Part shown: positions 1 through 52,852 of the stretch, in pieces
Position numbering within the stretch: the first letter of the stretch is position 1
How the letters are laid out: every line of letters starts with the position of its first letter
IMG/VR virus record: IMGVR_UViG_2568526722_000002
Span: 1-54,562 of that record
Source of the DNA: a virus
Lineage: Duplodnaviria > Heunggongvirae > Uroviricota > Caudoviricetes
Direction: 5' to 3' (one strand)
DNA: 54,562 bases
Position numbers and translations under genes: made by a program
Notes under the pieces: model-generated
What the model saw: only the letters and a program-made list of their open reading frames with translations
Database searches by the model: none
Told to the model about the DNA's origin: nothing

Positions 1-771
1 TCAATAAGTACCCTTCTTATTAGGATTCACACTAAATTTCCGTAAAGCATTCCCCGACTTAAGCACTTTTGAAGCCTGCTCATTAGCTGAGGCTGTGAAG
101 GTGCTCTCACCATTTTTAACGCTAACGCTCTTAGAGCACGTTACACGGGCTTTTAGCGCTTCATCTGATAACTCACTTGCCGAATAGCTAAAAAGCTCTT
201 TACAGGTCAGCATAGGGCTTCCAAGATTCGTTGTAGTGTTCCCTGTATTCTTTTTACTGGTAGCACCACCATCATTTGTGGTAGCCGTTTTGCCAGTGGC
301 TGCTGAAATATCAGTTTGCCCTACGATTGAACGAAACTCTACACCTTGGAAGGTCATCTGAATACGAAGACCATTAGCAATGGTATGCTCTTTACTCGCT
401 TTAAACTGAGTAATGATACTATCAGTGATAGATATTCCATCTTTACAAACAATAGTGATGATTTGCTTCTGGTCTCGCCATTGTTCAACCGTAGAAATAA
501 AGGTTTCTACAAGTTGCCCCTGTCTGGTTAATAGAACTGAACCCGTCGAATCAACCACTACAACACCGCTAATAGAGATGGTCTTAGGTGCTCTCTGAAC
601 ATTATCAGTGATAGTTTGCCCCGATTGCATAGCCTGAGTTGTCACCATCATCGGTGAGTCATAGTCCATCTGTTCAGTAGCTGTTAAGGCAAGAAAAGAT
701 TCTACATTATCTCGAAGATGAAAATAGATACCATCTTTACCTGAGTATCTAATTTGCTTTGTGTCAAACAT
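1..771 (-). CDS. phage tail protein of unknown role, directly downstream of the tape measure gene
   Basis: 256-aa ORF, complete (stop TGA is the reverse complement of positions 1-3); sits immediately 3' of the tape measure gene in a minus-strand operon; no motif recognised. Confidence 0.4.
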
Positions 772-944
772 TGTTGTTATTCCTATTCTGTTAAGCGTGA
801 GCTACGTGAAATCTAATTTTTGATGTTGGTATCTGTTCAGAAGAAATCACGTAGCATTCGACTATTCATAGTTGAATCGTCATACTAGATAAAGATTAAT
901 AGATTGCCATGTGTGGCAATAAATATTAGTAGTTCTAACATTGT

Positions 945-3011
945 TTATTCCTCTGGGTAAGCTGAGCTAATCAAGGTATCTTCCTGCATACGATTAATAT
1001 GTGATGTTGTCCTTTCATCAATAACTTTCCCATCAAGTACCGTCTGAGTTGTGATATTGATTGTCTGAGGCTGAATATTTACTGACGGCTTGATAAGCTT
1101 TAAATCTTGTGTGAATGTTTCCACTCGACCTTTCAGATTATTTAATGCTTCAGGTGAAAACTGTGGAACATCTTTTGATTTGCCCTGAACCATAGCCCAT
1201 AAAACAGTGGCTAAAGAGTTCATGTCACCAGTTAATGCTTGGTCTGTGGGTTCCACCTTTGACCTTACAACTTTATCAATTGGATTATCTGACTTACTCA
1301 TCTGACGTTCATAGAACGGTTTGACAATGGCATTAATCACATCAGTTGCCATACCGATAATCACTACTTTGGTAATTGCATCAGCTACAGATAATTTTCC
1401 TTTACCACCTTCAACACTACCGGAACGTGAATTAATTCTTCCTGCTGCTGTATTTGCTACATTTCCAAGCGTGGAAATAGCCCTAATTAAGTTCCAGATA
1501 CCACCTACAGCACCAATACCAGACCTTACAGCGACAATACCAGCAAGTCCCTTTAATGCACTTAACAGGCCATTTGCGATACCATCAGCTACAGCTTTTT
1601 GAGTGTCATTTAATTCTCTGTAAGCAAGGGTCACTCTGTCAAAGAATCCCTGCACTCGGTAGCTAATCGTGGTTAAATCATCAATACCGTTTGACATGCT
1701 TTTCATCAAGTCGCCAAAATGTTCACCAAGATTTTTAGCTTGACCACCCAGTGAATTAAGTAAATTAGTCAGTGACCTTGTAAAGTCTGTTAAACCTTCC
1801 TGTGAACCATCGAACATTAAGGCCAGATTATTATTCCATGAATTACTTAAGCGGCCTAACTGCGTCTGAGTAGAGTTAATAATCTTTTCCCATCCACCAG
1901 CTTTATCAATCATCCTTCCCATTTCAGCGGATACTTTAGGGAGAACATCTTTAGAAAGAACCTTACCGTCTTTCATGGCCTTGTCTAATTCTTCTGTAGT
2001 CATCCCAAGGCTTCTGGCAAATAACTGGAAAGCACCTGCCATTCTGTCACCTAATTGACCACGTAGCTCTTCAGCCTGAATCTTCCCTTTAGAAGCCATC
2101 TGCTCGAAAGCTTTCAGAATCCCGTTAATTTCATCAGTACTTAAACCCATTAATCTGGATGTGCCAATCACATTAGAAAATAGGGATTCTTTCTGGTCTG
2201 TATTCATATCACCAGCACCAGCGGAAAACTTAGCAAAACTGCTTAATGTTTCAATCTGGTCTACACCTGTATTATTAGCAAGATTCTTAACGAAGTCTGT
2301 AGCTCGTTTAGCGCCTTCATCGCCTAATACAAATTGTGCCGCTCGTTGTGATGCTTCTTTTTTCAGACCAACCTCCATAATCTTCCTATAAGCTTCTAAG
2401 GCTGTCTGAAAACTATAAATGGCTGTACCTGCTTTGATTGCACTTGTAGCTAATACATCTAAACCATTTGAAGCATTTTCACTGTGATTGTTTTTGCTGG
2501 TGGTCTTATTAAACTTAGAAAGTGTTTCACGTAGATTTTGATTTAACTTTGCTAACTCACGATTAAAAGCTTCGTTCCCAAGTGTCTTGGATTTACCGCT
2601 TAAGCTGTAATACTGGCTTCTAAAATACTTCTCAAGTAGAGGATTAAAGTCACGAAGCTTGCTCATATTCACGCTATGCGCTGCTGTGATTGCTCTGTTT
2701 CCGCTAATTCGTGGCTGTCTTGGCTGTCTAAGTGGCTTTAAAGTATCCTCAATTTCAGTTTTAATCTTAAACGCTTTAGTGTTTTTAAGACGCTGCTCAA
2801 TCTTGGAAACAGTCTTATCGACATTTCTTTCCATGACCTTGAGAGAATCATTTAAAGGCGTAGGGTTAACTCTGAATGCCTTATTTAGTCGTTTCTCAAT
2901 TCTTGATGCGATTTGCATCGTTTGTTTCTCGGCTTTTTCCAAGCCTTTTAAAACTTTCTGAGAGTTAAAACTTAACTCAATCAGAAAATCATCAACTTTA
3001 AACTGTGCCAT
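945..3011 (-). CDS. phage tail tape measure protein (lambda gpH-type core)
   Basis: 688 aa, coiled-coil rich; carries the conserved tape-measure core GILKAFEQMASKGKIQAEELRGQLGDRMAGAFQ...TTEELDKAMKDGKVL. Confidence 0.8.
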   Translation of the reverse strand: MAQFKVDDFLIELSFNSQKVLKGLEKAEKQTMQIASRIEKRLNKAFRVNPTPLNDSLKVMERNVDKTVSKIEQRLKNTKAFKIKTEIEDTLKPLRQPRQPRISGNRAITAAHSVNMSKLRDFNPLLEKYFRSQYYSLSGKSKTLGNEAFNRELAKLNQNLRETLSKFNKTTSKNNHSENASNGLDVLATSAIKAGTAIYSFQTALEAYRKIMEVGLKKEASQRAAQFVLGDEGAKRATDFVKNLANNTGVDQIETLSSFAKFSAGAGDMNTDQKESLFSNVIGTSRLMGLSTDEINGILKAFEQMASKGKIQAEELRGQLGDRMAGAFQLFARSLGMTTEELDKAMKDGKVLSKDVLPKVSAEMGRMIDKAGGWEKIINSTQTQLGRLSNSWNNNLALMFDGSQEGLTDFTRSLTNLLNSLGGQAKNLGEHFGDLMKSMSNGIDDLTTISYRVQGFFDRVTLAYRELNDTQKAVADGIANGLLSALKGLAGIVAVRSGIGAVGGIWNLIRAISTLGNVANTAAGRINSRSGSVEGGKGKLSVADAITKVVIIGMATDVINAIVKPFYERQMSKSDNPIDKVVRSKVEPTDQALTGDMNSLATVLWAMVQGKSKDVPQFSPEALNNLKGRVETFTQDLKLIKPSVNIQPQTINITTQTVLDGKVIDERTTSHINRMQEDTLISSAYPEE

Positions 3012-3136
3012 TGTTCATATTTCACCTCATAGACTTCGGATAGAAGACTATCTCATATACAAAAAAGGGAGAAACTACCGATATCACTCGATAATCTCTC
3101 CCGTTGATTTTTACCCAACCAATTCTATTAGAAGCT

Positions 3137-3346
3137 TTAATGGTAAACGTAAGAATACATCCCATCATCACCTAAAATCTGTGCGTCACATGGTAATTTA
3201 TCCAAGCACCATGAAGGAATCTTACGTACCTTTGGTTTGTGTGAGGTGATAACTCGACGTTGATTTCCAGTTCGTAGCTTTGGTTTGGTTTGTAACTTTA
3301 AGTTTTCACAAACAGACCGAATAGTCTCTAAACGTTCTTCAAACAT
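3137..3346 (-). CDS. hypothetical small basic protein
   Basis: 69-aa ORF between the 234-aa ORF and the tape measure gene, same strand. Confidence 0.25.
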   Translation of the reverse strand: MFEERLETIRSVCENLKLQTKPKLRTGNQRRVITSHKPKVRKIPSWCLDKLPCDAQILGDDGMYSYVYH

Positions 3347-3368
3347 TAATCACCTCACATATGCATAA

Positions 3369-4073
3369 TTAAATAACCTTACTAAATTCTCGTGGAACAC
3401 TCAAAAAGTCATTGAAGCTACTAATCTGTGCAAGCTCTTGTTTGTATTCCTTAGCGATTTTTTGATGGTCACGAATCAAATTAGCCAGAGTTGATTTCAC
3501 CAAATTAATCTCGGTTTCTCTTACCTTCATCAGTCGCTTTCTAGCCATTTCTTCAAGCTCAGCTTGTGATTTATCAGAAATAATTAAAGTCAGTTTATGT
3601 GGCGCTCTGACAGCTCTTTCTGTACGAACAACTCTTTGGCCTTCTGGTAAATCTGCAATCACTTTACCAATTTCTGAATGGTCATATCCCCAACCGTCAC
3701 GGTCTAGTCTTGTATAATAATCGTAGGTGTTTGTCTGAAGCTCCATCAAAATAGCCATTTCGTCAACTTCATTTTCAAGTTTGGACTGAAGTTTTTCGTA
3801 AACACGATTCATAGCTTTTTGAGAGTCTCGAAGGTCTTTGAAATATTTGCGTTGCAGCTTCAGTTTCAAATCAAGCTCACATTCCTCATTCATCGAAAAA
3901 TCAATTTCAACTCTTGGAATCTCAAATGGTTCTGGTGGAATATATGGACCTTTATTTACTTCGTGTGATTCCCGCCAAGCTCTATCAAAAGATTCACGCA
4001 AAGTTAATTCGTGAATATCAAGTGCACTTGGTCGGCTTTCAATAATCATTTCATTTTCATCACGGATAGCCAT
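3369..4073 (-). CDS. hypothetical phage protein upstream of tape measure gene (possibly a tail assembly chaperone)
   Basis: 234-aa ORF co-oriented with and just upstream of the tape measure gene; function inferred only from position. Confidence 0.3.
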   Translation of the reverse strand: MAIRDENEMIIESRPSALDIHELTLRESFDRAWRESHEVNKGPYIPPEPFEIPRVEIDFSMNEECELDLKLKLQRKYFKDLRDSQKAMNRVYEKLQSKLENEVDEMAILMELQTNTYDYYTRLDRDGWGYDHSEIGKVIADLPEGQRVVRTERAVRAPHKLTLIISDKSQAELEEMARKRLMKVRETEINLVKSTLANLIRDHQKIAKEYKQELAQISSFNDFLSVPREFSKVI

Positions 4074-4330
4074 TAATACCTTTCCTCTTCTAAGATAATT
4101 TATGTTTCAGTTTTTAAAAAGCACACCTGACAGCCTGCGAACTTAGAAGAGACTTAAAAGGCGTTTGCCAAGTATGCTTTTTAAAAGCTGAAAAAAGCCC
4201 TAAACATAGGTGATTCGGATATTCATGGAATCATCCTCATCTGTGAAGGGCTTTGGAGGTTTGCTTATAACGTTAACGAAGTTTCAGGAAAAACTTTCTT
4301 TAAAAGCTCTGTTTAAAACTCTTAAAGAAA

Positions 4331-4358
4331 ACGCCCTAACTCATGATTAGGGCAAAGC
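4331..4358 (-). terminator. candidate intrinsic terminator (minus strand)
   Basis: Inverted repeat GCCCTAA..TTAGGGC followed on the minus strand by a T-rich run, between two minus-strand genes. Confidence 0.3.
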
Positions 4359-4574
4359 TGTAAGGGTTCAATAATGAATGATTAAGCACTTTTTGAGATG
4401 ACCTCTCAGACTAAACTGAAAGGCCATGACGAAAAGCATTGCACCTTTCCAACTCAGAATATCCATCCATCGGATTATTGAAAATATGATTTTAGGAAAA
4501 ATTGCTCTTCCTATATATACAATTATGTCATGCTTAAGATTATTTGTCAACAGCTTTTTAACAGATTGGTAACA

Positions 4575-4652
4575 TCAATTTTTATTTACCGCGTTGCCCA
4601 CCCAGCAACCAACAAATAAACCTAAAGCTGTCCAAGCAATTATTAAGCCCAT
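4575..4652 (-). CDS. small hydrophobic peptide (25 aa, single predicted TM), translationally coupled
   Basis: Not in the ORF track (<60 aa). Reads MGLIIAWTALGLFVGCWVGNAVNKN; its ATG overlaps the stop of the upstream 107-aa ORF (TAATG); AGGTGG lies 6-11 nt upstream. Confidence 0.3.
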   Translation of the reverse strand: MGLIIAWTALGLFVGCWVGNAVNKN

Positions 4653-4975
4653 TAATGCACCACCTTCGAATCCGTAACCAAAACATTGTCAGCGTACAAA
4701 ATTACTATAGCCGCCTTGAGATATTTTTCAGGGCTAACGCTGTATCGGTTAGTTTCCTCAATAATAAGGCGCTTCATGTTTGAGTCGGTAACGGGAAACA
4801 TAAAACGTGGGTCACCAGTTTCAATTTCCTGAATAAAATCTTCAATTGTTTCTGAGTTATCAGCCATTAGCTTTAACAGCCTGTCAAAGTCAATGCTAAT
4901 ACCTGCATCAGTGAAGCTTTGCACCATCATAGCAGTGTCGGTATCAATAAAAATTTGTAATGGGTAACTGTTCAT
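4652..4975 (-). CDS. hypothetical protein
   Basis: 107-aa ORF in the minus-strand gene string of the AT-rich element. Confidence 0.4.
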   Translation of the reverse strand: MNSYPLQIFIDTDTAMMVQSFTDAGISIDFDRLLKLMADNSETIEDFIQEIETGDPRFMFPVTDSNMKRLIIEETNRYSVSPEKYLKAAIVILYADNVLVTDSKVVH

Positions 4976-4998
4976 TTCTTAAAATCTCCTTTTTCACC

Positions 4999-5118
4999 AG
5001 ACCTCCTCAATCGCTCTGTAACGAGCTAAACAGTCTTTTTCAGGGGTAGCCTGTACAGTGGTATTACCCACCCTAAAATAGGGTAGTTTTTTGCGTTAGA
5101 ATGCGATTGAGAGCGTCT
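4999..5118. repeat. structured repeat element, copy 1 (conserved arms CTCAATCGC / GCGATTGAG around a hairpin plus T-tract)
   Basis: Arms nearly identical to copy 2 at 6654-6750; internal hairpin ACCCTA-AAA-TAGGGT followed by TTTTTTG; lies just 3' of the HNH gene. Confidence 0.6.
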
Positions 5119-5132
5119 GAGAAGCTGTTTTT

Positions 5133-5420
5133 CTAATTTCTCTTAAAGTCTCGGACTTGCATAAGATTTTTTGGTCTGGTATCGGCTCTGTTACCATTTC
5201 GATGGATAATTTGCTTATTGGATTGATAGCCATGATAAAGGAACCAGACAACATATTTCACGTAGAAAGTGTATCGGCCTATATTAAATGTTTTGTTGCC
5301 GTAGTCGTCGGTATTTATCGTGACCGACTCTCCATCAGACCAGCACAGGGAATCACTGGATTCATCATAGATAAGGTGTTCTGTAAAATATCGTCTAACA
5401 TCTTCATGCCAAGGTTTCAT
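5133..5420 (-). CDS. HNH homing-type endonuclease (HNH_3-like)
   Basis: 95 aa; C-terminal pattern YVKYVVWFLYHGY...IIHRNGNRADTRPKNL parallels the HRLAW..HG..IDHxNGN..DNRxENL signature of the second HNH gene at 47704. Confidence 0.6.
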   Translation of the reverse strand: MKPWHEDVRRYFTEHLIYDESSDSLCWSDGESVTINTDDYGNKTFNIGRYTFYVKYVVWFLYHGYQSNKQIIHRNGNRADTRPKNLMQVRDFKRN

Positions 5421-5632
5421 AAAACCTCCTCACCCCAATAACCTAATTCAATCTTGTGACGCTCAAACCATTCCGGTTTAACTGCTGTTTTCAGTGCTTC
5501 ATTTGGGCCAATGGCTTTAATGAAAATATCTTTTGAGTTATGGATGTCACCGAATCCGTTTCCTTCAATCAGGAGGTCGGAGATGTAGCGAATCATTTTA
5601 TCTGTGTGGTATTCAAAGGTAACGCATAGCAT
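5417..5632 (-). CDS. hypothetical protein
   Basis: 71-aa ORF, start overlaps the stop of the downstream HNH gene. Confidence 0.35.
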   Translation of the reverse strand: MLCVTFEYHTDKMIRYISDLLIEGNGFGDIHNSKDIFIKAIGPNEALKTAVKPEWFERHKIELGYWGEEVL

Positions 5633-5913
5633 TAAACCTCCATCGCTAATTTGTGAATTTTGATACTCATTAGACGGGAAATATCAATTTTAAAGTTGTT
5701 AAGTCCCTTCAAAGTATCTAAAGCGTCCTGAGTAATTCGGATGTGTTTACGACCTTTAGAGACTGGATATTTCAGTAAATCCGACTCAGTGACCTCTTTA
5801 GCAATCGCAAGTTGCATAATAGTTTGATGAGGCAGGCTAGTTGTCTGTTTAATTCGGGTAAGCTCGTTAAAAGCTTCCTCTGAAATACGGGTTAATGTGT
5901 GTCTGCTTTTCAT
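5632..5913 (-). CDS. hypothetical small protein, possibly DNA-binding
   Basis: ORF track gives 5632-5994; the internal ATG at 5913 has a GGAGGAA Shine-Dalgarno and sits 1 nt after the stop of the upstream 183-aa ORF. Confidence 0.35.
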   Translation of the reverse strand: MKSRHTLTRISEEAFNELTRIKQTTSLPHQTIMQLAIAKEVTESDLLKYPVSKGRKHIRITQDALDTLKGLNNFKIDISRLMSIKIHKLAMEV

Positions 5914-5914
5914 T

Positions 5915-6466
5915 TTAAAATTCCTCCAAAATATACGGGTCAAACTCAAAGTCTGGTTCACTGGTCGTAAGGCTAATATTGCCCACTTCCACATGATGAT
6001 TGATTGTCTCGATAACTTTATTGCAAATGGTGGCTAAGTTAGCGCAATATTTATCGCTTGGTAGCTCATGGCTTAATCGGGTCGCTTGACGCTGAAGACA
6101 ATTTGTTATTGTGCTTGAGCTAATTTTGTCAATATTTCGTAATAGATAGAAAACTTTCCGGTGATAATTATCCCTTCCAAGACTGCGACAAGTACCGATA
6201 ATTATATCTTCAATTTTTGATGGTAATTGCTCGTAAGAATCAAAGCTCATCAGGAAAGTCTTTAAAGTGTTCTCTTTTTCTTTGCGTGTTGGCATGTGTC
6301 TTACCCGTGGCGTAATGCTACGAATGACCGCTTCAATGTTTCTACGTTCGGATTTGGTAAAGGCTGGGACTTCGTAGCTGGTGGGGGTGTCTGTGTAGCT
6401 GTAACCGTTGTGTCTGTTGCGTCTCTTGGATTCTTCAAGAAACTTTTGAAATTCTCTGTCGTTCAT
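5915..6466 (-). CDS. hypothetical protein
   Basis: 183-aa ORF; no recognised motif. Confidence 0.4.
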   Translation of the reverse strand: MNDREFQKFLEESKRRNRHNGYSYTDTPTSYEVPAFTKSERRNIEAVIRSITPRVRHMPTRKEKENTLKTFLMSFDSYEQLPSKIEDIIIGTCRSLGRDNYHRKVFYLLRNIDKISSSTITNCLQRQATRLSHELPSDKYCANLATICNKVIETINHHVEVGNISLTTSEPDFEFDPYILEEF

Positions 6467-6549
6467 TCATATTCTGACCCTCATAAGATGTTATTATTCT
6501 GTTAACTCATATATACAATACTAGCAGTTTCAAAGACTAATGTCAAGTA

Positions 6550-6582
6550 TTTTTTAACATTTTATTAACATTTGTGGTATAA
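6550..6582 (+). promoter_or_regulatory. candidate sigma70 promoter with extended -10 (TGgTATAAT)
   Basis: TATAAT at 6577-6582 preceded by TG one base upstream; AT-rich upstream region; points rightward into repeat copy 2. Confidence 0.4.
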
Positions 6583-6653
6583 TGGTCCTATGGGGAGAGT
6601 AAAATATAAAGGCGTGGCCATGTATTTGGTCACATGGTTATTGCATTGCACAC

Positions 6654-6750
6654 AGACCTCTTCAATCGCCCTGTAACGAGTTAAACGACCTCTTCAGGTC
6701 AACTCATAAGGTCAGGTACTTTTTGTGTCAGAATGCGATTGAGAGCGTCT
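6654..6750. repeat. structured repeat element, copy 2
   Basis: Same conserved arms as copy 1; different internal hairpin (GACCT-CTTC-AGGTC) followed by TTTTTG. Confidence 0.6.
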
Positions 6751-6764
6751 TACAAGGAAATTTA

Positions 6765-6953
6765 ATGGTAAATCTCCCTCCTGAGCTGGGGTCACCTGAT
6801 GTATGGGCTGGTGGAGGTATTGGACTTATTGCAGGTCTGCTGCTTCGCTATTTCATCGTCAGAGTGTTTATCGTGTTCAGATTGTTTGGTCGTGAATGGT
6901 CGTTTGACCTCAAGGACAGAGGCCGTGAAGACAATCACACAGAACCCCGCTAA
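6765..6953 (+). CDS. candidate small membrane protein (62 aa)
   Basis: Internal start of track ORF 6723-6953; AAGGAAA Shine-Dalgarno before the ATG at 6765; hydrophobic stretch GGGIGLIAGLLLRYFIVRVFIVF; downstream of the promoter and repeat copy 2. Confidence 0.25.
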   Translation: MVNLPPELGSPDVWAGGGIGLIAGLLLRYFIVRVFIVFRLFGREWSFDLKDRGREDNHTEPR

Positions 6954-7071
6954 ACTCCCTCCAAAACCCCCTGTACGAGATGGTATAGGGGTATCTTTAG
7001 CATTTTGTGCTATCCATGAAAAAATAACTTGACAGAACCGGAAAGCTGTATCTATCAAGTATTCACCCTTC

Positions 7072-7226
7072 TAACAGTAATTTCTAAAAGTTCTTATTTT
7101 TCAATAAGTTGTAATTAGCCATATATAGAGAACTGACAAGTCTCTTCACAGACAACTCTGCAACCTTAACAGTAACTTCTAAAAATGCTTATTTTTCAAC
7201 GAGTTGTAATCACCCAATATATAAGG
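7072..7226. repeat. two imperfect ~60-bp direct repeats (period ~95 bp) in a non-coding region
   Basis: TAACAGTAAyTTCTAAAA..CTTATTTTTCAAyrAGTTGTAAT..ATATATA occurs at 7072-7131 and 7167-7226. Confidence 0.6.
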
Positions 7227-8029
7227 CTGTCCAGCACCTTCACAGAGAAACTTCAGAGGTCTTCTTAATCAATCCACTAAGCGGGAGAGAGCGATAACCC
7301 CAGAGAGGGAAGCTCCCTTCTTAATCGGCCTCCTAACCAGTCTTTACAAACCTTGTTCAAGGTAATCACAATAGATTTTTCTTCCCTCGTTCTTCGTGTT
7401 CCTCGGTTTGCCTATTGAGACTTGAAAGACCTCTGTAACTTCCCTCTTAGACAGGGAAGAATAATATTGGTGACACAAGCGAAGCGCCCCTCTAAAAAGA
7501 TTTTTTAGCTATTTTGTTTAAAAACACATCAAACGATACATTTTATTGATTTAGGTCAAAGACAAAAGCATTGACAAAATGGTAAGATTGTTCACATGAC
7601 CTTACTTAACAGACTTTTAAGAGGCTTTGAAACGACCTACTTAACAAGGTCACTACATCTGGTCTTATCGTTCCCTGTCTTCTTGGTAGTTCTGTTAAGT
7701 ATCTTTTCAGGTATCTCTTACAGTCACTGTTAAGATGATACTCTCCCTTCGGGTTATATCGTATCTCTTCCCCCGTTAAACACTCCTTCCTAACAACTTC
7801 ATAGTTATCTGTCAAGTACCTTTGAAGATTCTATCAAGACCTCTAAATCTGACCTGATATAGATGCTGTGAAGGCATGTTCTCTAGGTCTGTGTAGCTTA
7901 CTTAGCGGGAAAAGAGGATATGGTGACCATAGGGGAACCCCTCCTGTTAAAAGTTTCTTGATGTTATCATCACAATATGTATAATCACCAACTGTACAGA
8001 CACCTTAACGGTTTCTCTACACCTCACTA

Positions 8030-8095
8030 TGGCTAGGTAGGGTATGGTTTAGCTTGGTACGGCTAGGTTAGGTCTGGTTTGGTTAGGTATGGGTG
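8030..8095. repeat. G/T-rich iterated short repeats (GGTTAGGT / GGCTAGGT / GGTCTGG units)
   Basis: Run of 7-8-bp GGT-rich units read directly from the sequence; iteron-like. Confidence 0.5.
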
Positions 8096-8127
8096 GATTG
8101 TCGTAGCCACGTTAAAAATCGACTTAT

Positions 8128-8152
8128 AGGGACTCTTTCGGGAGTCCTTTTT
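8128..8152 (+). terminator. candidate intrinsic terminator
   Basis: Hairpin GGGACTC-TTTCG-GGAGTCC followed by TTTTTAG. Confidence 0.35.
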
Positions 8153-8381
8153 AGTTTGTATAAAATCTGTACAGTAACTTTTCAGAGTCTGAAAATTTTT
8201 ATAAAAAATGACTAGCCCTCTTTGAATCTCATCTTCCCCGAATCTTCGAAAATATCTGTCTAGTTGATTCGGTAGAATCTACCTCATGATGTATACCTGC
8301 TAAGTACCCGTCACACCAGCTATGTGACCCCCTTTGCAAAAAAGCCAAATATCAGCTACATCCATGTAACTATTCGGTAAC

Positions 8382-8930
8382 TTATTTAGCAAGTCTGTAA
8401 TAAGTTGCTTTAGAGATTCCTAATTCTTCCTGAATCTGCAACCTCGTTTTACCTTGTGAAATAAGCGTCTGTACAGCCTCTGAAGAAGCTTTTACAGGCC
8501 TCCCCATATGTACCCCTTCAGCTTTAGCACGTTCAATACCAGCCTTTCTACGTTCACTGATAAGGTCTTTTTCAAGGTCAGCTAAACCAGCCATCATAGT
8601 AAGCATTGCTCTACCGATTGGTGTTAATAAGTCGAAACCTTCACGCAAAGAAACAACTCTCACACCTTTAGTCTGTAGTGCCTCCACGTTAGAGAGCACA
8701 TCAACGGTATTACGCCCTAAACGGTCAATAGCTACCACAACTAACGTATCGTCACACCTTACATAGTTCATCATGTCTCTAAAACCATCTCTGCTGGTGG
8801 CCTTTGTAGCTCCTGAGACAGCCTCATCAATAAACCATTTATCGACCTTGTGAACCTTCTCTATCTGTAGTTTCTGGTTGTCTACAGTCTGGTCTTGTGT
8901 TGATACCCTGCAATAACCAATCACCGCCAT
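8382..8930 (-). CDS. small serine recombinase (resolvase/invertase family)
   Basis: 182 aa; N-terminal catalytic block IGYCRVSTQDQ (Ser nucleophile), VVAIDRLGRN, and a C-terminal HTH; typical resolvase size. Confidence 0.85.
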   Translation of the reverse strand: MAVIGYCRVSTQDQTVDNQKLQIEKVHKVDKWFIDEAVSGATKATSRDGFRDMMNYVRCDDTLVVVAIDRLGRNTVDVLSNVEALQTKGVRVVSLREGFDLLTPIGRAMLTMMAGLADLEKDLISERRKAGIERAKAEGVHMGRPVKASSEAVQTLISQGKTRLQIQEELGISKATYYRLAK

Positions 8931-8945
8931 ACATCCCCCTTAGAA

Positions 8946-9050
8946 GTCTCAAAAGTTGGTCTCATAAGTTTAGCTGTCTCACAATCCAAAAACAACCTTT
9001 TGAGACACTTGGAAGGTGCATTCTACCGTTACGTTGAAAGTGTCTCAAAA
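8946..9050. promoter_or_regulatory. res-like array of recombinase half-sites upstream of the serine recombinase gene
   Basis: Five GTCTCA / TGAGAC motifs in both orientations within ~100 bp immediately 5' of the recombinase gene; resembles the TGTCyNNTA half-sites of Tn3-type res sites. Confidence 0.4.
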
Positions 9051-22455: not shown

Positions 22456-24309
22456 TTAGTAATTCATGGCGGTTGTTATTCTGCCGTTATCCTCGACGTT
22501 ATAGGTTTTCTTCTCCCCCTTATCATTGACCAGGGTGATTTCCAGCTTCATTTTCTGATCGGCCATCGCCTCTTTGAGGGACCGGGTCAGGTTTTCACTG
22601 ACAGTGTCTCTCCCATTACCGGAAGCTGTCAGGATTGAGGAACTGTCAAACTTGTCCGGTTGCGGTACGAGGATGTTCTCTCTCTGCTGGCTGAGCACTC
22701 GGCTGTCACGAAGACCAGACCAGCGCGGATCACTGATAGCCGTCTGAATTGCCGCCCGTATCTCATCTTCAGAATATGGCTGCGCCCCATTCTCATGCTG
22801 AATCATGGCCGCCATGACTGACTTCAGCACCTCCGGGTTATGCAGATCCACCCGCTGCTGGGGTTGAATACCTGTCGCGGCCGATACTGAATTGATATAG
22901 GACTGCGTATCATTTTCCGAGCGTGGCGCATAAGTGTGGATCATGCTGTTCAGCGTGTTATTCCCACGATCGCCATATAACATCAGTTGCCGGGCCATTG
23001 CCGCCAGCCCGTCGCTGCTGTTGTCATAAGTGACGAAACCACGATTCACCCCGGTCGCATTAGGCGCTATCCGGAGATTGCCGGGGTTATTATTTCTCAG
23101 GCCCAGTGCCTGGTTAGATGGCTGGCTGTAATTCACTTCTCTGCGTGGAACTGCTGCACCTGCTGGCAGGATGACAGACAAATCATTTCGGAGTTGTTCA
23201 GCTCTGTCCCCGGCGCCATATTGCGCGTCGTAGCGTTTACGGACGGCATCAGTCATAAAGCCGGCATCCACCGCTCCGCGCTCGCGCCGGGAAAGGGTGT
23301 TATACAGCGCCTTATCACCCTGAATGCGGCGTAGCTTCCCGGCATCCTTGCTACTGATAAACCCCAGCGCATGCGACAGCCCGGTGAAATCGCCATTCGT
23401 GAACAAGTCGGTCACTCCTTCAAGGCCGTCTTTCACCGAACCATCGGAAAGCAATCCCTTAAACAGAGAGTTTTTCGAACGGTTTTTCAGCCCATCCCAT
23501 GCAGCGCCCAGCTCATTCATGGAGCCGTTAACCTCGGACAATTGCCGGTTAAGTTCCGGATCAACCGTCAGGCCAAGTTCATCAGATTTAGCCAGCAATG
23601 CTTTCATCCGTACGCCTTCACGCATCAGCGCCAGCATTTCCGGCGTCAACCCGAGGGCATCGGAAACTGATTTCTGCTGGTCCGGTCGCAGACTCGGGAA
23701 AACGCGTGCTATCGACTCCAGCGTTCTCAGCGTATCAACGGATCCATCGTTGTTTTTCTGGATCTGAACGCCAATCTGTGACAATGCGCCGAGCACCTGG
23801 CTGTTGGCACCACTGGCGGCCTCCTTCAGGCTTTTAGCCATCCCCTCGATGGAGGAATTTGCACTGTCGCCATCAGCACCCAGTATCCGCATGGCACCGG
23901 ACAGGCGGGAAAAATCGTCCACTCGCATACCCGCATTTTTCGCGGCGACATCGAGGTTATAGGCTTCCCTTGAAGCCTCATGGAAACCGTAGGCAATCTG
24001 TTTTAGCCCATATCCCGCCGCTCCAACAACCCCCAGTGATGCCAGCTTACCGGAGAGCTCACCGACCATCTTCAGCGGTGGTACCATGTCCCCGATGTAC
24101 TGAACATTATCACGGGCATTTTTGGACAGATTTTCGAAGCGGGAAATAAAGCCGTTCAGTCCATCGAGGGTCTCCTGCCCTCCTAACTGGAGTCCCTCTT
24201 TGGTTTTATCCAGCTTTGGTTCCAGATCACGGATAGCCTCATTGATACGCTCAATGGCTTCCGTCGCCTGGTCGCTGGCCACCAGCTCAAAGTCGAAAGA
24301 ATTACTCAT
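22456..24309 (-). CDS. tail tape measure protein (Mu-type tail)
   Basis: 617 aa, alpha-helical and repeat-rich; follows the frameshifted chaperone pair. Confidence 0.8.
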   Translation of the reverse strand: MSNSFDFELVASDQATEAIERINEAIRDLEPKLDKTKEGLQLGGQETLDGLNGFISRFENLSKNARDNVQYIGDMVPPLKMVGELSGKLASLGVVGAAGYGLKQIAYGFHEASREAYNLDVAAKNAGMRVDDFSRLSGAMRILGADGDSANSSIEGMAKSLKEAASGANSQVLGALSQIGVQIQKNNDGSVDTLRTLESIARVFPSLRPDQQKSVSDALGLTPEMLALMREGVRMKALLAKSDELGLTVDPELNRQLSEVNGSMNELGAAWDGLKNRSKNSLFKGLLSDGSVKDGLEGVTDLFTNGDFTGLSHALGFISSKDAGKLRRIQGDKALYNTLSRRERGAVDAGFMTDAVRKRYDAQYGAGDRAEQLRNDLSVILPAGAAVPRREVNYSQPSNQALGLRNNNPGNLRIAPNATGVNRGFVTYDNSSDGLAAMARQLMLYGDRGNNTLNSMIHTYAPRSENDTQSYINSVSAATGIQPQQRVDLHNPEVLKSVMAAMIQHENGAQPYSEDEIRAAIQTAISDPRWSGLRDSRVLSQQRENILVPQPDKFDSSSILTASGNGRDTVSENLTRSLKEAMADQKMKLEITLVNDKGEKKTYNVEDNGRITTAMNY

Positions 24310-25105: not shown

Positions 25106-26617
25106 TTATGCTCCTGTTGATTCAGCCTGCAGGCGAAACTGGTTAAGCAGCGCGAAGATGCGCAACTGGTTCATAAGCGTTCCCGGCCACAACACATCGA
25201 CGCGGTTCGGATTTGTTTTGTTCTGCTCCACGATAATGTTTCTGGCGAAGGCCTCAGCGTCCTGCGCGTAGCCGTTAAAGACCAGCGTCTGGTATTCCGC
25301 GATCTGATCGGCTCTGATGATGTTTGGCGTCACAATCGCCGCCCCCGGCGCAAAACGCGTGCCATCCGCGGCCAGCTTCATGCGACCAAATTTACTGGTC
25401 ACTGCAGTGCGGAGATATCGTGTGACAAACATCAGGCTGAAGAGCGTTTCCACCTGCAGGTAACTGTCGTCTTCGTCGCCATAGCTGTTTTTCTGGTAGG
25501 TGGTAATCAGGTTTTCAATCATCACCGTCCCGTCATCACCCACGGTGTAAGTGGAGATGCCGCTGTACAGCAGGTTATTGCGCTCTGTCAGTTCAAAGCG
25601 ATCCGCCAGGTCCGGTGCCAGCACGCCATAAACAGGCAGACTTTGTAGCGGGCGTCCGGGGTCATTACGCAGGCTGGGTGCAGCGGCCCCTGTCAGTGCC
25701 GCCGCCCAGATATAACGCGGTGATGGTGAGCGGTACACGCCAAGCAGTGACTCATGCTGGTTATTACGGGTTTCCCCTTTGGTGCCAAGCTCGGCGTAAG
25801 TGCCGTTGGTGGTGGTGAATGCGTGGCCATAAAGCTGTTTATCCCATGCCCAGCGGCCGGTTGCATCGTTCAGAAATTCTCTGATGGCATCCAGTGATGC
25901 GGTGTCATCATAAGGGTTGATGACAAAATCAAAGGTCTTATCCTGCAGGTTGCCAAGGGCATCAACAAAATCCGGCGCGCCGGCGCCGCCGGTCATGCCC
26001 GTGATGGTGAGTGTCAGGCCCGCGGGCGTCACCTCACCACCCTGAACACCGAGATAATTCAGCCTGATATCAATACCATTGCCCAGCAACCCGGCATTTT
26101 TGGCCGTCAGTGTCACGGTATCCGTTGCATCGGCTTTTACAGCAGCTGTCACCGGCAGTTCCGTTTTGCGGGTAATCGCCGCGACCAGCGCAGTGGCAAT
26201 CTGAGCCGGAGTGTCAGTCGCCAGTACGGTCAGTTGTACGCGAACGCCAGCAATATAAAGAGAGATAACGCCGGTTTCTGCCGCCTGTGTGGCAACCTTG
26301 ATACTGCCAGTTGCCACTGCCATCGAATCCGCATCATCAGCCAGCGGAAGGATCCAGACCTCCGCAGCAGTATCGTTTTTTTGATACGCCGTCATCATGC
26401 CATGCAGCATTGATCCTTTTCCGGTGAGCTCACCCACCGCATTGGGAGAGGAGACTTTTACCGGGATTTTTTCCTGTGCAGAGCCTGATGCCAGCATCTG
26501 ACCAATCAACAGCGTTCGTTGTGTAGCCGTCGCCGTGTTGGCCATGGAGTTATCAAACTCCACATAAAAAAGCGGCACACGTAAATTGCCGGGAACTCGC
26601 GAAAATGGAACGGTCAT
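25106..26617 (-). CDS. tail sheath protein (contractile tail)
   Basis: 503 aa; size and position typical of Mu L-type sheath proteins. Confidence 0.8.
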   Translation of the reverse strand: MTVPFSRVPGNLRVPLFYVEFDNSMANTATATQRTLLIGQMLASGSAQEKIPVKVSSPNAVGELTGKGSMLHGMMTAYQKNDTAAEVWILPLADDADSMAVATGSIKVATQAAETGVISLYIAGVRVQLTVLATDTPAQIATALVAAITRKTELPVTAAVKADATDTVTLTAKNAGLLGNGIDIRLNYLGVQGGEVTPAGLTLTITGMTGGAGAPDFVDALGNLQDKTFDFVINPYDDTASLDAIREFLNDATGRWAWDKQLYGHAFTTTNGTYAELGTKGETRNNQHESLLGVYRSPSPRYIWAAALTGAAAPSLRNDPGRPLQSLPVYGVLAPDLADRFELTERNNLLYSGISTYTVGDDGTVMIENLITTYQKNSYGDEDDSYLQVETLFSLMFVTRYLRTAVTSKFGRMKLAADGTRFAPGAAIVTPNIIRADQIAEYQTLVFNGYAQDAEAFARNIIVEQNKTNPNRVDVLWPGTLMNQLRIFALLNQFRLQAESTGA

Positions 26618-47318: not shown

Positions 47319-47525
47319 ATGGTTCATCAGCACTACGGTACACAGACAGTAAACCGCGGCGCAGTTCAGCCGGGGATGCTCGTCAAACACAAAGACTCAA
47401 CCTGGACGGCATCAGCTAACGCTCGCGGACGTTTGTATCTGCATCGCGGCGTAGAAATGACTTACACCAAGGATTTGCTGGTTGAAGTTTATCTGAACGG
47501 TCTGGGGCATGGACTCAGCCACTAG
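47319..47525 (+). CDS. hypothetical early-left-operon protein
   Basis: 68-aa internal start of track ORF 47175-47525; GGAGA before the ATG. Confidence 0.3.
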   Translation: MVHQHYGTQTVNRGAVQPGMLVKHKDSTWTASANARGRLYLHRGVEMTYTKDLLVEVYLNGLGHGLSH

Positions 47526-47536
47526 CGGAGGATGTC

Positions 47537-47698
47537 ATGTTAGACAAGAAATGCGGATATTGCGGCAAGCCGGTTAAAACGGAGGAAGTAATCAAGAGCA
47601 CCCTTCTCTATCGCAACGGCTCACAGCTGGCGCGCAAAGAAAAAGAGTATTGCTCCAAACGTTGCGCTTCGCACGACCAGATGGCTCACGAAGGCTAA
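47537..47698 (+). CDS. small zinc-ribbon protein (CxxC...C...C)
   Basis: 53-codon ORF not in the track; GGAGG 6 nt upstream of the ATG; encodes [14 protein letters not shown]...[12 protein letters not shown]. Confidence 0.4.
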
Positions 47699-47703
47699 CG
47701 GTG

Positions 47704-48207
47704 ATGAATATGCGAGAAAAATTATCACTGGCACGACTGAAGGAATTGCTCAGCTACTCGCCTGAAACAGGAGCATTCACATGGCTCAAAAATCGCGGAC
47801 GGATAACCGCAGGTGATTTTGCTGGAAATTTAGATACGCGCGGCTATGTACGAATCATCATCGATGGAAAGAAATACAGAGCACACCGCTTGGCCTGGCT
47901 TTATACACACGGAAAATGGCCTTAAGACCAGATTGACCATGTGAATGGAAATTGCTCTGACAACAGGCTGGAGAATCTCCGCGAGGCTACTTGCTCACAG
48001 AATAACTTCAATAAACCGCTTCAGAAAAATAATACGAGCGGAGTGAAAGGAGTTTATTGGCACAAAGGGAAACAACGCTGGACAGCCATGTGCCGAGTTA
48101 ATGGCAAAAGATTCACGGTAGGAACTTTTATTGAATTAGAAAAGGCTGCGGAAGCAATACGCGACTTCCGCAAAGCGAATCATGGTTCATTTGCCAGGAA
48201 TTCATAA
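47704..48207 (+). pseudogene. HNH-AP2 homing-type endonuclease gene interrupted by a single in-frame TAA
   Basis: Track ORFs 47650-47925 and 47941-48207 share one frame; TAA at 47923-47925 falls between ..[14 protein letters not shown] and DQIDHVNGNCSDNRLENL (catalytic HNH motif); AP2-like domain follows. Confidence 0.65.
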
Positions 48208-48338
48208 CCCAGCGCAATGCTGAAAGGCTCCGGTGGTACCGACCAAAGTTACACCGGAAACAACATTAAAACCAAAGTTAACCCAATGGGCGCTATCAAT
48301 GGTCCGGGGATTCTAACACCCAAAAATGAGGATCTCAC

Positions 48339-51300
48339 ATGGAATTCTTTAATGTGGTTAAAGCCACTCAGAAATCCGGAAAGCAAGATGCAGTGGTCTG
48401 GTTCACTGCTAAAACCGAGGCTCGCGCCAATCTGATGCTGGATGTTGCGCTGGAAGATGCAGGTATCGAAACAGGTCGGGGTAAGGACTACGCCAAACCG
48501 ATTCGCACTGATTTCCCAGTTGTCGACGGCCTGCCGAAAGAAGGTGAAGTTGATTTTACCTGGTGTGATCGCTACGAGCTTCAGGACGATGGGCGCACCT
48601 GGCTGCCAAAAGCCGCTGGTGTGTCTACTGGTTCCGTTGACGCCCCCTACACACCTACTCCGACCGTAATCGTTGAAGATGCGACTGCGTCCGAAATTGT
48701 CCCGGTTGAAAACCGTACTCCAGCGGTCCGCTTTGCCGTCCATCTGATGAACGATAAATACCAAACCCACGTCACTAAAGAGCAGCAGTTGGCTGCCAGC
48801 GAAATGTCACTGGATGAAGGCAATACATATCTCCATAGCCTGCTTGTGGCAAGGAACGATGTGCCCGCGACCGCCAAACTCAGCCTGAATGCTGAGTGGA
48901 AAATGATTCGGGCGGTTAAGGACATTTTCACACCAGACGAAGAGCACGAACCAAGATTGATCGCTGCATTCATGTCTGACTGGGTGAACACCGATGCCGG
49001 TGACCGCAATCAACTGGTAGAAGACTGGCGCAGTGGTAAGTTGCAGTTGCTCAAAACTGAAACCAGCAACGCTGCTGACGTTACAACGGGTCAAGATCTC
49101 ACTGTTGAGGACGGTATCCAGACCGACGAGAACGGCCGGGCAGAAGGTGGCGTCGTTGATGGTGAAGTCGATACCGAAGAGCAATCCCAGCAGACACAGC
49201 AACCGAACCTGATCGTTGTTGCCACCCTGCCATTCCGCCAGCGCGTACTGGCTCAGTTCATCGGTGATGGTGAATATCTCTATCACATCGACGCAGGGCA
49301 GAAAAATGAGATTGTCCGCCTTGAGATGGACACCGATGACGCGTACGTCCAGAACCTGCTGCTGGCAGCTGAGAATGTGGAAGCATTCAAAAAAGCCATT
49401 GAGCACGATATTCATAAAGTCGTGAATGCCGTTAAGAAAGTCTTCCCTGTCGATGGAAAAATCCCTGAACTCGCAACCTTAATCCAGTTTTTGAAATTGT
49501 GGTTCGCTACAGATCACATCGACCGCGGTATCTTCGTTCGCGAATGGGCCGCCGGTAATCGCATCAGTAGTGTGCAGCGTACTGATTCCGGCACTAATGC
49601 CGACGGCGGTTACGTCACTGACCGTGGACCTGACGCACACCACACACTGGACACTCTCGATTTAGAGATTGCGTGTGCCCTTCTGCCTATGGACTTCAAC
49701 CACTTCGAGATCCCGGGCAGCATTCTTCGTCGCGCTAAAGAAATCGTGACCAAAAAAGAAGAACCATGGAAATCATGGAGCAACATCCTGCGCAATCAGC
49801 CAGGCGTTCTGGGTGTTAACCGCACGGCTATTTTTAACCTGGTACGTATCGCACCGGAAAATATTCATTTAACTCCTGTCGCTCACCTGGAATTTGTTAA
49901 CCAGACCATGACAGCCGCGTTCAATTCCGCGGTCGAGTTATTGCCGTTGCATGAGGCTGAACCCGCAGCACAGGAAATTCCCCAACCTGAAGGTAAGGAG
50001 TCTCCGCGCAAATCCTTCTGCACTCACGAAGAGAACCTGCAACGCGTGCGTGAAGAAGGAGCACGCCGCCGCGCAGAGGAAGCGGCAGCACAACCGCAGA
50101 AAGTCGAACAAGAACTGGTTAAAAATGTCGGCAACGGAATATTCGACGTTACGGCTTTGCTGCAGAACTCAGCAACTCATGGCACGAAAAAGGCTACGGA
50201 GACCACCAGCAATGTGCAGGTTCAAGAAACTGTCAGTGATGAAAAACAAGCTGGTGATGAAGTACAGCCAGGCGAAAGCAGTCTGGAGTCTGGTGAAGAG
50301 TCAGATACCAGCCAGAAGGACGATGTAAACCAGAATACGGATTCTGTCGCCAAAAATAGCGATTCTGTAAGCCAAACCGAACCAGTTGCAGCACAAACCG
50401 AGCCAGAAGCGCAATCTGACGAACCGGCTGTTGTTTATCCCGCTTATTTCGAGCCAGGCCGCTATGAAGGGCTGCCAAACGAGGTTTACCACGCCGCCAA
50501 CGGCATCAGCTCAACCCAGGTGAAAGATGCGCGCGTTTCGCTGATGTACTTCAATGCGCGCCACGTAGAGAAAACCATCGTCAAAGAGCGCTCAGCGGTG
50601 CTGGACATGGGCAACTTGGTGCATGCGCTGGCGTTGCAGCCTGAACTACTGGACGCAGAATTCAGCGTTGAACCGGTGATCCCTGAAGGCGCATTCACAA
50701 CGGCCGCGACCCTGCGCGCCTTTATCGATGAGCACAATGCCAGCCTGCCGGCGCTGCTGTCTGCCGACGACATCAAGGTGTTACTGGAAGAGTACAACGC
50801 CACCCTGCCGCCGCAGGTTCCGCTTGGCGCTAACCTGGAAGAAACGGCACAGAACTATATGGCGCTGCCAGCTGACTTCCAGCGTATTGATGGTGACCAG
50901 AAGCAGACGGCGACGGCAATGAAGGCATGCATTAAAGAGTACAACGCCACCCTGCCGCCGCCGGTTAAAACCAGCGGCAGCCGTGACGCGCTGCTGGAGC
51001 AGTTGGCAATCATCAACCCTGACCTTGTGGCTCAGGAAGCACAGAAACCGGCACCACTGAAAGTGTCCGGTACCAAAGCAGACATGATCCAGGCCGTGAA
51101 GGCAGTCAAACCAGATGCCGTATTTGCCGACGAACTGCTGGATGCCTGGCGCGATAACCCGGAAGGAAAAGTGCTGGTCACCCGCCAGCAGCTGAGCACC
51201 GCGCTGAATATTCAAAAAGCGCTTCTGGCACACCCGACCGCCGGCATGCTGCTGACCCACCCTAGCCGAGCCGTTGAGGTGAGCTACTTTGGTTTTGACG

Positions 51301-51728
51301 AGGAGACGGGCTTGGAAGTTCGTGTGCGCCCTGACCTTGAGATCGACCTGGATGGCGTGCGTATAGGTGCAGACCTGAAAACCATCAGCATGTGGAATGT
51401 TAAGCAGGAAAGCCTGCGCGCCAGGCTACACCGGGAAATTATTGAACGTGATTATCACCTGAGCGCGGCTATGTACTGCGAAACCGCAGCGCTGGATCAG
51501 TTCTTCTGGATTTTCGTCAACAAAGACGAGAACTACCACTGGATCGCCATCATCGAGGCATCCGCTGAACTACTGGAGCTGGGTATGCTCGAGTACCGCA
51601 AAGCGATGCGCAATATCGCAACCGGATTCGACACAGGTGAATGGCCAGCGCCAATCACTGCTGACTACACCGACGAACTGAACGACTTCGACCTGCGCCG
51701 CCTTGAAGCGCTGCGTACTCAGGCATAA
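48339..51728 (+). CDS. recE: RecE-like exonuclease (exonuclease VIII family) with long N-terminal and acidic linker regions
   Basis: 1129 aa; C-terminal ~250 aa looks like a PD-(D/E)xK-type nuclease domain; directly followed by a RecT-like gene. Confidence 0.55.
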   Translation: MEFFNVVKATQKSGKQDAVVWFTAKTEARANLMLDVALEDAGIETGRGKDYAKPIRTDFPVVDGLPKEGEVDFTWCDRYELQDDGRTWLPKAAGVSTGSVDAPYTPTPTVIVEDATASEIVPVENRTPAVRFAVHLMNDKYQTHVTKEQQLAASEMSLDEGNTYLHSLLVARNDVPATAKLSLNAEWKMIRAVKDIFTPDEEHEPRLIAAFMSDWVNTDAGDRNQLVEDWRSGKLQLLKTETSNAADVTTGQDLTVEDGIQTDENGRAEGGVVDGEVDTEEQSQQTQQPNLIVVATLPFRQRVLAQFIGDGEYLYHIDAGQKNEIVRLEMDTDDAYVQNLLLAAENVEAFKKAIEHDIHKVVNAVKKVFPVDGKIPELATLIQFLKLWFATDHIDRGIFVREWAAGNRISSVQRTDSGTNADGGYVTDRGPDAHHTLDTLDLEIACALLPMDFNHFEIPGSILRRAKEIVTKKEEPWKSWSNILRNQPGVLGVNRTAIFNLVRIAPENIHLTPVAHLEFVNQTMTAAFNSAVELLPLHEAEPAAQEIPQPEGKESPRKSFCTHEENLQRVREEGARRRAEEAAAQPQKVEQELVKNVGNGIFDVTALLQNSATHGTKKATETTSNVQVQETVSDEKQAGDEVQPGESSLESGEESDTSQKDDVNQNTDSVAKNSDSVSQTEPVAAQTEPEAQSDEPAVVYPAYFEPGRYEGLPNEVYHAANGISSTQVKDARVSLMYFNARHVEKTIVKERSAVLDMGNLVHALALQPELLDAEFSVEPVIPEGAFTTAATLRAFIDEHNASLPALLSADDIKVLLEEYNATLPPQVPLGANLEETAQNYMALPADFQRIDGDQKQTATAMKACIKEYNATLPPPVKTSGSRDALLEQLAIINPDLVAQEAQKPAPLKVSGTKADMIQAVKAVKPDAVFADELLDAWRDNPEGKVLVTRQQLSTALNIQKALLAHPTAGMLLTHPSRAVEVSYFGFDEETGLEVRVRPDLEIDLDGVRIGADLKTISMWNVKQESLRARLHREIIERDYHLSAAMYCETAALDQFFWIFVNKDENYHWIAIIEASAELLELGMLEYRKAMRNIATGFDTGEWPAPITADYTDELNDFDLRRLEALRTQA

Positions 51729-51733
51729 GGGGA

Positions 51734-52852
51734 ATGATGATGGAAAACACGAATATCGTAACCGCTGAACAGCAGACTCCAAACACGATCTCAGCCAGCA
51801 ATGCCATTTTCAACGTGCAGGCTTTAACCCAGCTTCAGTCTGTCGCCGGGTTGATGGCACAGGCAGCCGTAACGGTGCCTGAGCACCTCCGCGGCAATCC
51901 GGCAGACTGCATGGCCATCATCATGCAGGCGATGCAGTGGGGTATGAACCCTTACGCCGTGGCGCAAAAGACGCACCTGGTTAACGGTGTCCTGGGATAC
52001 GAAGCGCAACTGGTTAATGCGGTGATCTCCAGCTCAAACGCCATCGTTGGCCGCTTTCACTATGAGTACGAGGGCGACTGGTCGAAATGTGCCAGCAGCC
52101 GCGAGATAACCGTTAAAAAGCCTGCGAAAGGTGGCGGGACGTACGACAAGAAAGAAATGGTACGCGGTTGGGAAAGTGCTGATGAACAAGGACTGTCGGT
52201 ACGGGTAGGTGCCGTTATTCGCGGTGAAAGTGATATCACCTGGGGAGAGCCTGTTTTCCTCTCCAGCGTAATCACACGTAATTCTCCACTTTGGGTATCA
52301 AACCCGAAACAGCAGATCGCTTATCTGGCACTCAAATACTGGGCGCGCCTGTATTGCCCTGCAGTTGTTCTTGGTGTGTACACCCCTGATGAGATTGAAC
52401 AGCGCACAGAAAAAGAGATCAACCCAACGCCGCAACGCGTTAGCCTGGCTGATATCTCAGGTGACACCGTCACAACCACGCAAAGCGCACAGGAATCGTC
52501 GGTAAATGTCGACTCTCTTGCCGATGATTTCCGCGAACGCATCGAATCTGCTCAGGACGTGGATAGCGCCAAATCGCTGCGTGCCGACATTGAAACGGCG
52601 AAAGCTACGCTGGGATCCGCACTATTCACCGAGCTGAAAAACAAAGCCGTAAAGCGTTATTACCTAGTGGATGCACGCAACAAGGTTGAGGAGGCTATTA
52701 AATCCCTGCCCCAGCCCGACGAGCCGCATGCAGCCGAACGGTTCGCTGAAGCCGAGCGCATGCTTGCATCTTCAAAGCGTCACTTAGGCGATGAACTGCA
52801 CGATCAATTCAGCATCACCCTGGCGGATATGAAACCGGAATACGTGGCCTGA
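51734..52852 (+). CDS. recT: ssDNA-annealing recombinase (RecT/Red-beta-like)
   Basis: 372 aa; position after the exonuclease gene; PLWVSNPKQQIAYLALKYWARLY resembles the conserved RecT segment. Confidence 0.5.
   Translation: MMMENTNIVTAEQQTPNTISASNAIFNVQALTQLQSVAGLMAQAAVTVPEHLRGNPADCMAIIMQAMQWGMNPYAVAQKTHLVNGVLGYEAQLVNAVISSSNAIVGRFHYEYEGDWSKCASSREITVKKPAKGGGTYDKKEMVRGWESADEQGLSVRVGAVIRGESDITWGEPVFLSSVITRNSPLWVSNPKQQIAYLALKYWARLYCPAVVLGVYTPDEIEQRTEKEINPTPQRVSLADISGDTVTTTQSAQESSVNVDSLADDFRERIESAQDVDSAKSLRADIETAKATLGSALFTELKNKAVKRYYLVDARNKVEEAIKSLPQPDEPHAAERFAEAERMLASSKRHLGDELHDQFSITLADMKPEYVA

Follow-up and report, generated by a model that had tools for sequence, protein, structure and literature searches.

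Among the homing endonucleases of phages, the HNH-AP2 genes form an established class (PMC10448857), and HNH-AP2 enzymes from phages, cyanobacteria and protists are the subject of Magnani et al. (2004), as that study is cited in PMC10448857. In one such gene of phage ICP1, the HNH part is split from the AP2 part by a frameshift (gp115/gp116; PMC10448857). Free-standing endonucleases, co-conversion and the defunct I-TevIII of T4 are treated in a review (PMC2988022).

The locus described here lies in a stretch of 54,562 nt that was analysed over its whole length (the window). Very probably, an E. coli RecET prophage carries here, between ydaE and recE, a free-standing HNH-AP2 homing-endonuclease gene that has been inactivated by a recent and inherited G-to-T exchange (Glu72 to ochre). 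Both the kind of element and the stage of its life cycle are already known, with precedents for the domain architecture, the genomic behaviour and the mode of decay, and fragments of this particular allele are already present in public protein databases.

Prophage, neighbouring genes and the rest of the window

The RecET prophage is lambdoid and Rac-like and additionally carries an HTH repressor, YdaS/YdaT, and O and P replication genes; the integrase is found at the right end of the window. The genes of the early operon are arranged in the order kilR (47319-47525), ydaE (47537-47698, + strand, 53 aa, PF27493 YdaE), the HNH-AP2 gene, recE (48339-51728, + strand, exonuclease VIII, 1129 aa) and recT (51734-52852). 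The stop of ydaE lies 5-11 nt upstream of the start of the HNH-AP2 gene. A scan for promoters and terminators gave nothing particular to the HNH-AP2 gene. The Rfam scan of the whole window returned only the Hfq-binding sRNA isrJ (38420-38493, - strand, 68.7 bits, gathering score 37), far from the HNH-AP2 locus.

The gene at 45438-46742 (+ strand), situated between the repressor gene and kilR and followed by a terminator-like hairpin (46946-46969), is AT-rich (31-35% GC, against 50-55% around it) and encodes a protein of 434 aa. No match to this protein was obtained in Pfam, PADLOC or a PDB sequence search, and its sole match was full-length to PHROG 5990 (unknown function). Its N-terminus (MTAEIVVINNTGIALAADSAVT...) resembles, by eye, Ntn-hydrolase/HslV-like starts. 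In KMi029, OW1E2 (DUF3037 protein) and KL53 (IS3), other cargo is found at this place, which therefore has the look of a variable slot for morons or defence genes.

At the left of the window (1-16303), a Dit-like protein of the siphovirus type (1-771) and a tape measure with TMP_3 (945-3011) are encoded, together with a gene judged by eye to be serine invertase-like (8382-8930), a 614-aa protein with a GDSL-lipase domain (13072-14916) and an acyltransferase (15212-16303). Next comes a complete tail module of the myovirus type, with a tape measure (22456-24309), tube and sheath (25106-26617). Because two tail modules are present, the window may span parts of two elements or a mosaic.

Reading frame, intact alleles and domains

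The ORFs listed at 47650-47925 and 47941-48207 had been predicted to form one frame, with TAA at 47923-47925 as the sole interruption, and re-reading of the sequence agrees on both points. This TAA (+ strand) is in frame, is flanked by CCT (47920-47922, Pro71) and by DQIDHVNGNCSDNRLENL from GAC at 47926, and is the single stop between ATG 47704/47710 and the original stop of the gene (TAA, 48205-48207). The interrupted ORF consists of 165 codons from ATG 47710 (alternative start 47704), and its C-terminus reads ...FARNS before the stop; in intact alleles, the RefSeq start is ATG 47710, not 47704. The 5' fragment (47710-47925, + strand, premature stop included) encodes 71 aa ending in ...HGKWP, or 73 aa from ATG 47704, and is expected to be the sole part of the gene due for translation. 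The 3' part (47926-48207, + strand) contains the catalytic Asp76-His77 (47935-47940), Asn98 (48001-48003), the remainder of the HNH_3 domain (ending at 48006), the AP2 domain (48037-48186) and the original stop. The premature stop thus lies four codons upstream of Asp76-His77, just ahead of the DH motif, as had also been predicted.

Intact alleles were searched for by megablast of positions 47500-48400 against 5426 complete E. coli genomes. The gene was found in three of these (KMi029, OZ510750 and OW1E2), where it is annotated as HNH endonuclease and in no case as a pseudogene. KMi029 and OW1E2 carry the RefSeq 165-aa "HNH endonuclease" WP_024192363.1, with its start at window position 47710, and their alignment with the window gave a single difference over the whole gene, namely G instead of T at 47923 (GAA, Glu72, vs TAA). 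The exchange removes GAAGAC and creates CTTAAG. For H2/OZ510750, the megablast match itself contained 1 mismatch in 901 nt. Two IMG/VR prophage contigs (L059 and L060) likewise read GAA at 47923 and differ nowhere else in the gene; between about 47300 and 49500, base 47923 is the only one at which L060 departs from the window. Intact alleles were thus found in five other E. coli prophage records. By exact-sequence look-up, the intact protein was located on 132 contigs as the 165-aa form and on 246 contigs as a 167-aa form (the same sequence with an MNM start), about 378 together.

Domain tests were performed on the reconstructed 165-aa ORF, in which the stop was replaced by Glu. Pfam HNH_3 (PF13392) matched residues 56-99 in one stretch over the stop (59.4 bits, cut-off 24.8), Pfam AP2 (PF00847) matched residues 110-159 (35.0 bits, a small margin above the cut-off of 33.3), and PHROG 99 ("HNH endonuclease") covered residues 2-164 in one stretch (E 3.5e-70). 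The claim that the remainder of the gene, including the AP2 domain, is intact holds: the gene is otherwise the same as the intact alleles, and AP2 scores above its cut-off. Homologues were found in 3705 phage records; in 2544 of these, a homologue at one place covers no less than 80% of the protein. The annotation is in many cases that of a homing endonuclease, and several copies per genome are frequent, e.g., in T5-like phages. A scan of genome contigs with residues 73-165 gave distant relatives only (at most 57% identity, mostly Firmicutes MAGs), which were set aside. In an alignment of eight homologues, D76, H77, N89 and N98 were invariant, and the position of the stop was occupied by E, A or N, with a gap in one sequence. 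The comparison with intact homologues that the original prediction had proposed was therefore run on both levels, with GAA in the prophage relatives and sense codons in the phage homologues; natural termination at this codon was seen in none of the relatives examined (prophage alleles and aligned phage homologues). A PDB sequence search gave I-HmuI (1U3E) as its only match, in which D74/H75/N96 are aligned with D76/H77/N98, at an E value of 0.59 that is non-significant alone. In I-HmuI, these residues are the metal ligands and the general base.

Tested alone, the 71-aa fragment reached 16.7 bits with HNH_3 and ends ahead of D76/H77/N98, and the 88-aa piece, a mechanical GTG ORF (47941-48207, + strand, HNH tail and AP2), reached 20.0 bits and begins after D76/H77; the cut-off is 24.8 bits in both cases. 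A whole HNH_3 domain with Asp-His and Asn was not found in either of the translatable products of the window (71-aa and 88-aa ORFs). Automatic annotations give two proteins here, as would be expected if the locus naturally consisted of two genes, one for an HNH-like peptide and one for AP2. However, neither piece reaches the HNH_3 cut-off, since the domain is cut midway by the stop, and relatives both close and distant are all single ORFs. The probability of a natural two-gene arrangement is accordingly practically nil, and it was ruled out.

The nonsense allele: inheritance and consequences

Exact-sequence look-up located the N-terminal product on seven contigs as 71 aa and on five contigs as 73 aa; 12 contigs carry the C-terminal ORF of 88 aa. 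The fragments bear several NCBI protein accessions, under the names "HNH endonuclease" and "AP2 domain-containing protein". Of the 12 contigs, five TAA loci were examined, each of which has its own assembly accession and WGS prefix (GCA_049863265.1, GCA_000492275.1, GCA_001893125.1, GCA_016791925.1 and GCA_049865265.1). All of them read GGCCTTAAGACC, and over about 12 kb they match the window at 99.975-100% identity (0-3 SNPs); scaffold KI535406.1 of GCA_000492275.1 shows no difference over 12,267 nt.

One of the five, GCA_001893125.1 (L006, MOIJ01000088.1), contains a decayed copy of the same prophage in which the TAA is still present. Window position 26046 is joined there to 47567; the deletion, of about 21.5 kb, takes away the genes for head, lysis, replication and immunity as well as the beginning of ydaE. 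Further internal deletions leave recE as a remnant of 103 aa, and the integrase abuts chromosomal kch, yciY and cls.

A sequencing or assembly error, with G as the true base at 47923 and an intact gene, would fit a difference of one single base and the absence of the TAA allele from the 5426 complete E. coli genomes searched. Against it stand the same TAA on 12 contigs, the 0-3 SNPs per 12 kb that separate the TAA loci, one of which lies in a differently structured, deleted prophage, and the location of 47923 outside any homopolymer run. The probability of such an error is close to negligible. The TAA allele is thus real and inherited; a one-off base-calling error is very unlikely, since 12 contigs share the TAA and five assembly accessions were seen among them, and the sequencing effect that had been mentioned as a lesser alternative can be dropped on the same grounds.

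The mutation appears to have had a single origin, or to have spread with the prophage, in a small lineage, and the allele is young, since no second change is found in the gene. The original prediction, that a nonsense mutation had very recently inactivated an HNH-AP2 endonuclease of the homing type, is borne out in that the intact alleles differ within the gene solely at 47923. "Recent" is to be read as the lack of a second mutation so far; the age of the allele still allows it to be shared across a small lineage, including a prophage that later became more than 20 kb shorter. A further truncated form (protein P0015, 98 aa, six Logan contigs) ends in ...REATCS, just ahead of Gln97 (CAG), and may be an independent CAG-to-TAG nonsense allele or merely reflect contig ends.

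In this lineage, a single G-to-T transversion at 47923 converted GAA (Glu72) into TAA (ochre), and translation would be expected to end after Pro71. The 71-aa product would retain just the first strands of the beta-beta-alpha-metal fold and would lack Asp76, His77, Asn98 and the entire AP2 domain, so that neither binding nor cutting of DNA would be expected. From the missing catalytic residues and AP2 domain we infer a loss of function; the truncated product would be non-functional, and the mutation would presumably be selectively neutral in a repressed prophage. A C-terminal proline tends to provoke tmRNA tagging, and the 71-aa fragment is for this reason probably also unstable. A polar effect of the nonsense codon on recE and recT is conceivable. 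The exchange would represent the decay step within the usual cycle of homing endonucleases (invasion, fixation, decay and loss).

Production of a full-length active endonuclease by reading through or suppressing the stop (host ochre suppressor tRNA or programmed readthrough) was also considered. The last sense codon is Pro, and a C-terminal Pro slows termination in E. coli. On the other hand, termination at UAA is efficient in E. coli when G follows, and the relatives examined have GAA or other sense codons instead of a conserved stop. No tRNA gene was found in the 54,562 nt of the window, and the RNA after the stop has no unusual structure, as it folds no better than shuffled sequences (z -1.15). 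Readthrough is therefore regarded as extremely improbable. Suppression, the other lesser alternative raised at the outset, likewise loses its footing through the missing tRNA gene in the window, the unconserved stop and the lack of a special fold downstream.

The stop might instead have freed the AP2 domain as a nuclease-dead DNA-binding protein of 88 aa, re-initiated at GTG 47941 and retained either for regulation or to block the homing site. This GTG is in frame and only 15 nt past the stop, the 88-aa piece (named "AP2 domain-containing protein" in other assemblies) contains a complete AP2 domain (37.3 bits, cut-off 33.3), and AP2 and other DNA-binding domains of endonucleases have been co-opted as repressors elsewhere (PMC10448857; 10.64898/2026.02.23.707548). 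However, no Shine-Dalgarno pairing was found before GTG 47941: the anti-Shine-Dalgarno pairing energy of -1.4 kcal/mol is weaker than the background mean (-2.2), with values of -6.1 to -9.5 for kilR, ydaE and recE. Out-of-frame ATGs at 47939 (ATG-TGA) and 47945 would compete for initiation. The allele is moreover rare (12 vs about 378 contigs) and shows no follow-up adaptation, and the only stand-alone AP2 genes of this sequence are products of the same mutation or contig ends. Such a functional split is very improbable, and the 88-aa GTG ORF is probably not expressed.

A more specific version would take the allele as an early snapshot of the transition from a homing endonuclease to a DNA-binding regulator, in which the re-initiated 88-aa AP2 protein would bind its homing site at ydaE-recE, or a GC-rich site akin to it, as a repressor or blocker. 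Its chance is extremely slender, as a ribosome-binding site is missing, the allele is rare and no secondary adaptation is seen; if true, it would parallel the origin of plant AP2 factors and of the CapR and CasPR proteins. Simple inactivation by the nonsense codon is preferred.

Mobility of the cassette and relation to known systems

The gene belongs to a cassette of 528 bp (47701-48228, + strand; ribosome-binding region, gene and a 21-nt tail) that is either present or absent between ydaE and recE. Four empty sites (KL53, phage mEp237, 23CRST046 and Z142-1) were aligned with occupied ones; where occupied alleles have 47701-48228, the empty sites have 27 nt, TAAAACCCGCGCAAGGCGGGATCTACG. The same ydaE/recE flanks, up to 100% identical, occur without the gene in phage mEp237 and in 24 or more complete E. 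coli genomes. The backbone of OW1E2 is diverged from the window, and the tract 47674-48319 (+ strand) is nevertheless the same in both except for 47923; the flanks of the tract in OW1E2 differ at 18-34 of 100 nt on the left and at 15-95 of 100 nt on the right. L059 has a pattern similar to that of OW1E2, with the cassette kept and the flanks diverged. The tract 47674-48319 is thus the footprint of a recent transfer of the cassette with short flanks, and the cassette moves independently of the prophage backbone.

At the same locus, L061 carries a diverged ortholog (76% nucleotide identity, in a backbone that is about 78% identical) with Glu72. The dN/dS value against L061 is about 0.045, with dS saturated, and the protein has accordingly been under purifying selection in the past. 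The gene behaves like a free-standing homing endonuclease, and the intact protein would be expected to act as a nuclease and to home; this assignment is drawn from the presence or absence at a fixed site, the carried flanking tracts and the location at a mosaic boundary.

Empty ydaE-recE junctions (L003, L009, L010 and L011) contain a GC-rich hairpin (CCCGC-GCAAG-GCGGG) inside the 27-nt segment, and occupied alleles have a diverged counterpart (CAGC-GCAAT-GCTG) just past the stop of the gene. AP2 domains are reported to prefer GC-rich sites (PMC10448857; CasPR preprint 10.64898/2026.02.23.707548). It might be speculated that the GC-rich hairpin is part of the homing site and is altered in alleles that carry the endonuclease. 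In an unrelated phage, Escherichia phage ClaudiaMuster_Bas77 (L014, 1372-2939), a 47.8%-identical HNH homologue is located immediately upstream of an exonuclease VIII gene, which may point to the region 5' of recE-type exonuclease genes as a place where this endonuclease family has landed repeatedly.

The finding has little significance beyond annotation. Both small ORFs should be annotated as one pseudogene and not as "HNH endonuclease" and "AP2 domain-containing protein". The locus also offers a natural triplet of alleles (empty site, intact gene and one-base null) that could suit homing tests of HNH-AP2 endonucleases in temperate RecET phages, and it is an example of nuclease genes marking the recombination boundaries of prophages as they do in lytic phages.

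Among the known systems, the HNH homing endonuclease I-HmuI (PDB 1U3E, Bacillus phage SPO1) shares the motif ...DH.(N)G......NL.......N, which aligns in a pairwise comparison of non-significant score; it is intron-encoded and has other C-terminal DNA-binding modules, whereas AP2 is found here. [quoted passage not shown] The present gene also agrees with the HNH-AP2 class, including the "IPA-HNH" genes of ICP1: an N-terminal HNH_3 nuclease is joined to a C-terminal AP2 domain in a small free-standing gene between conserved phage genes, at a boundary of genetic exchange. The HNH part matches the Pfam model here, whereas HHsearch was required for the ICP1 genes, and the gene resides in a temperate RecET prophage, not in a lytic phage. 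As in gp115/gp116 of ICP1, the inactivating mutation parts HNH from AP2, by a single nonsense codon in this prophage and by a frameshift in ICP1.
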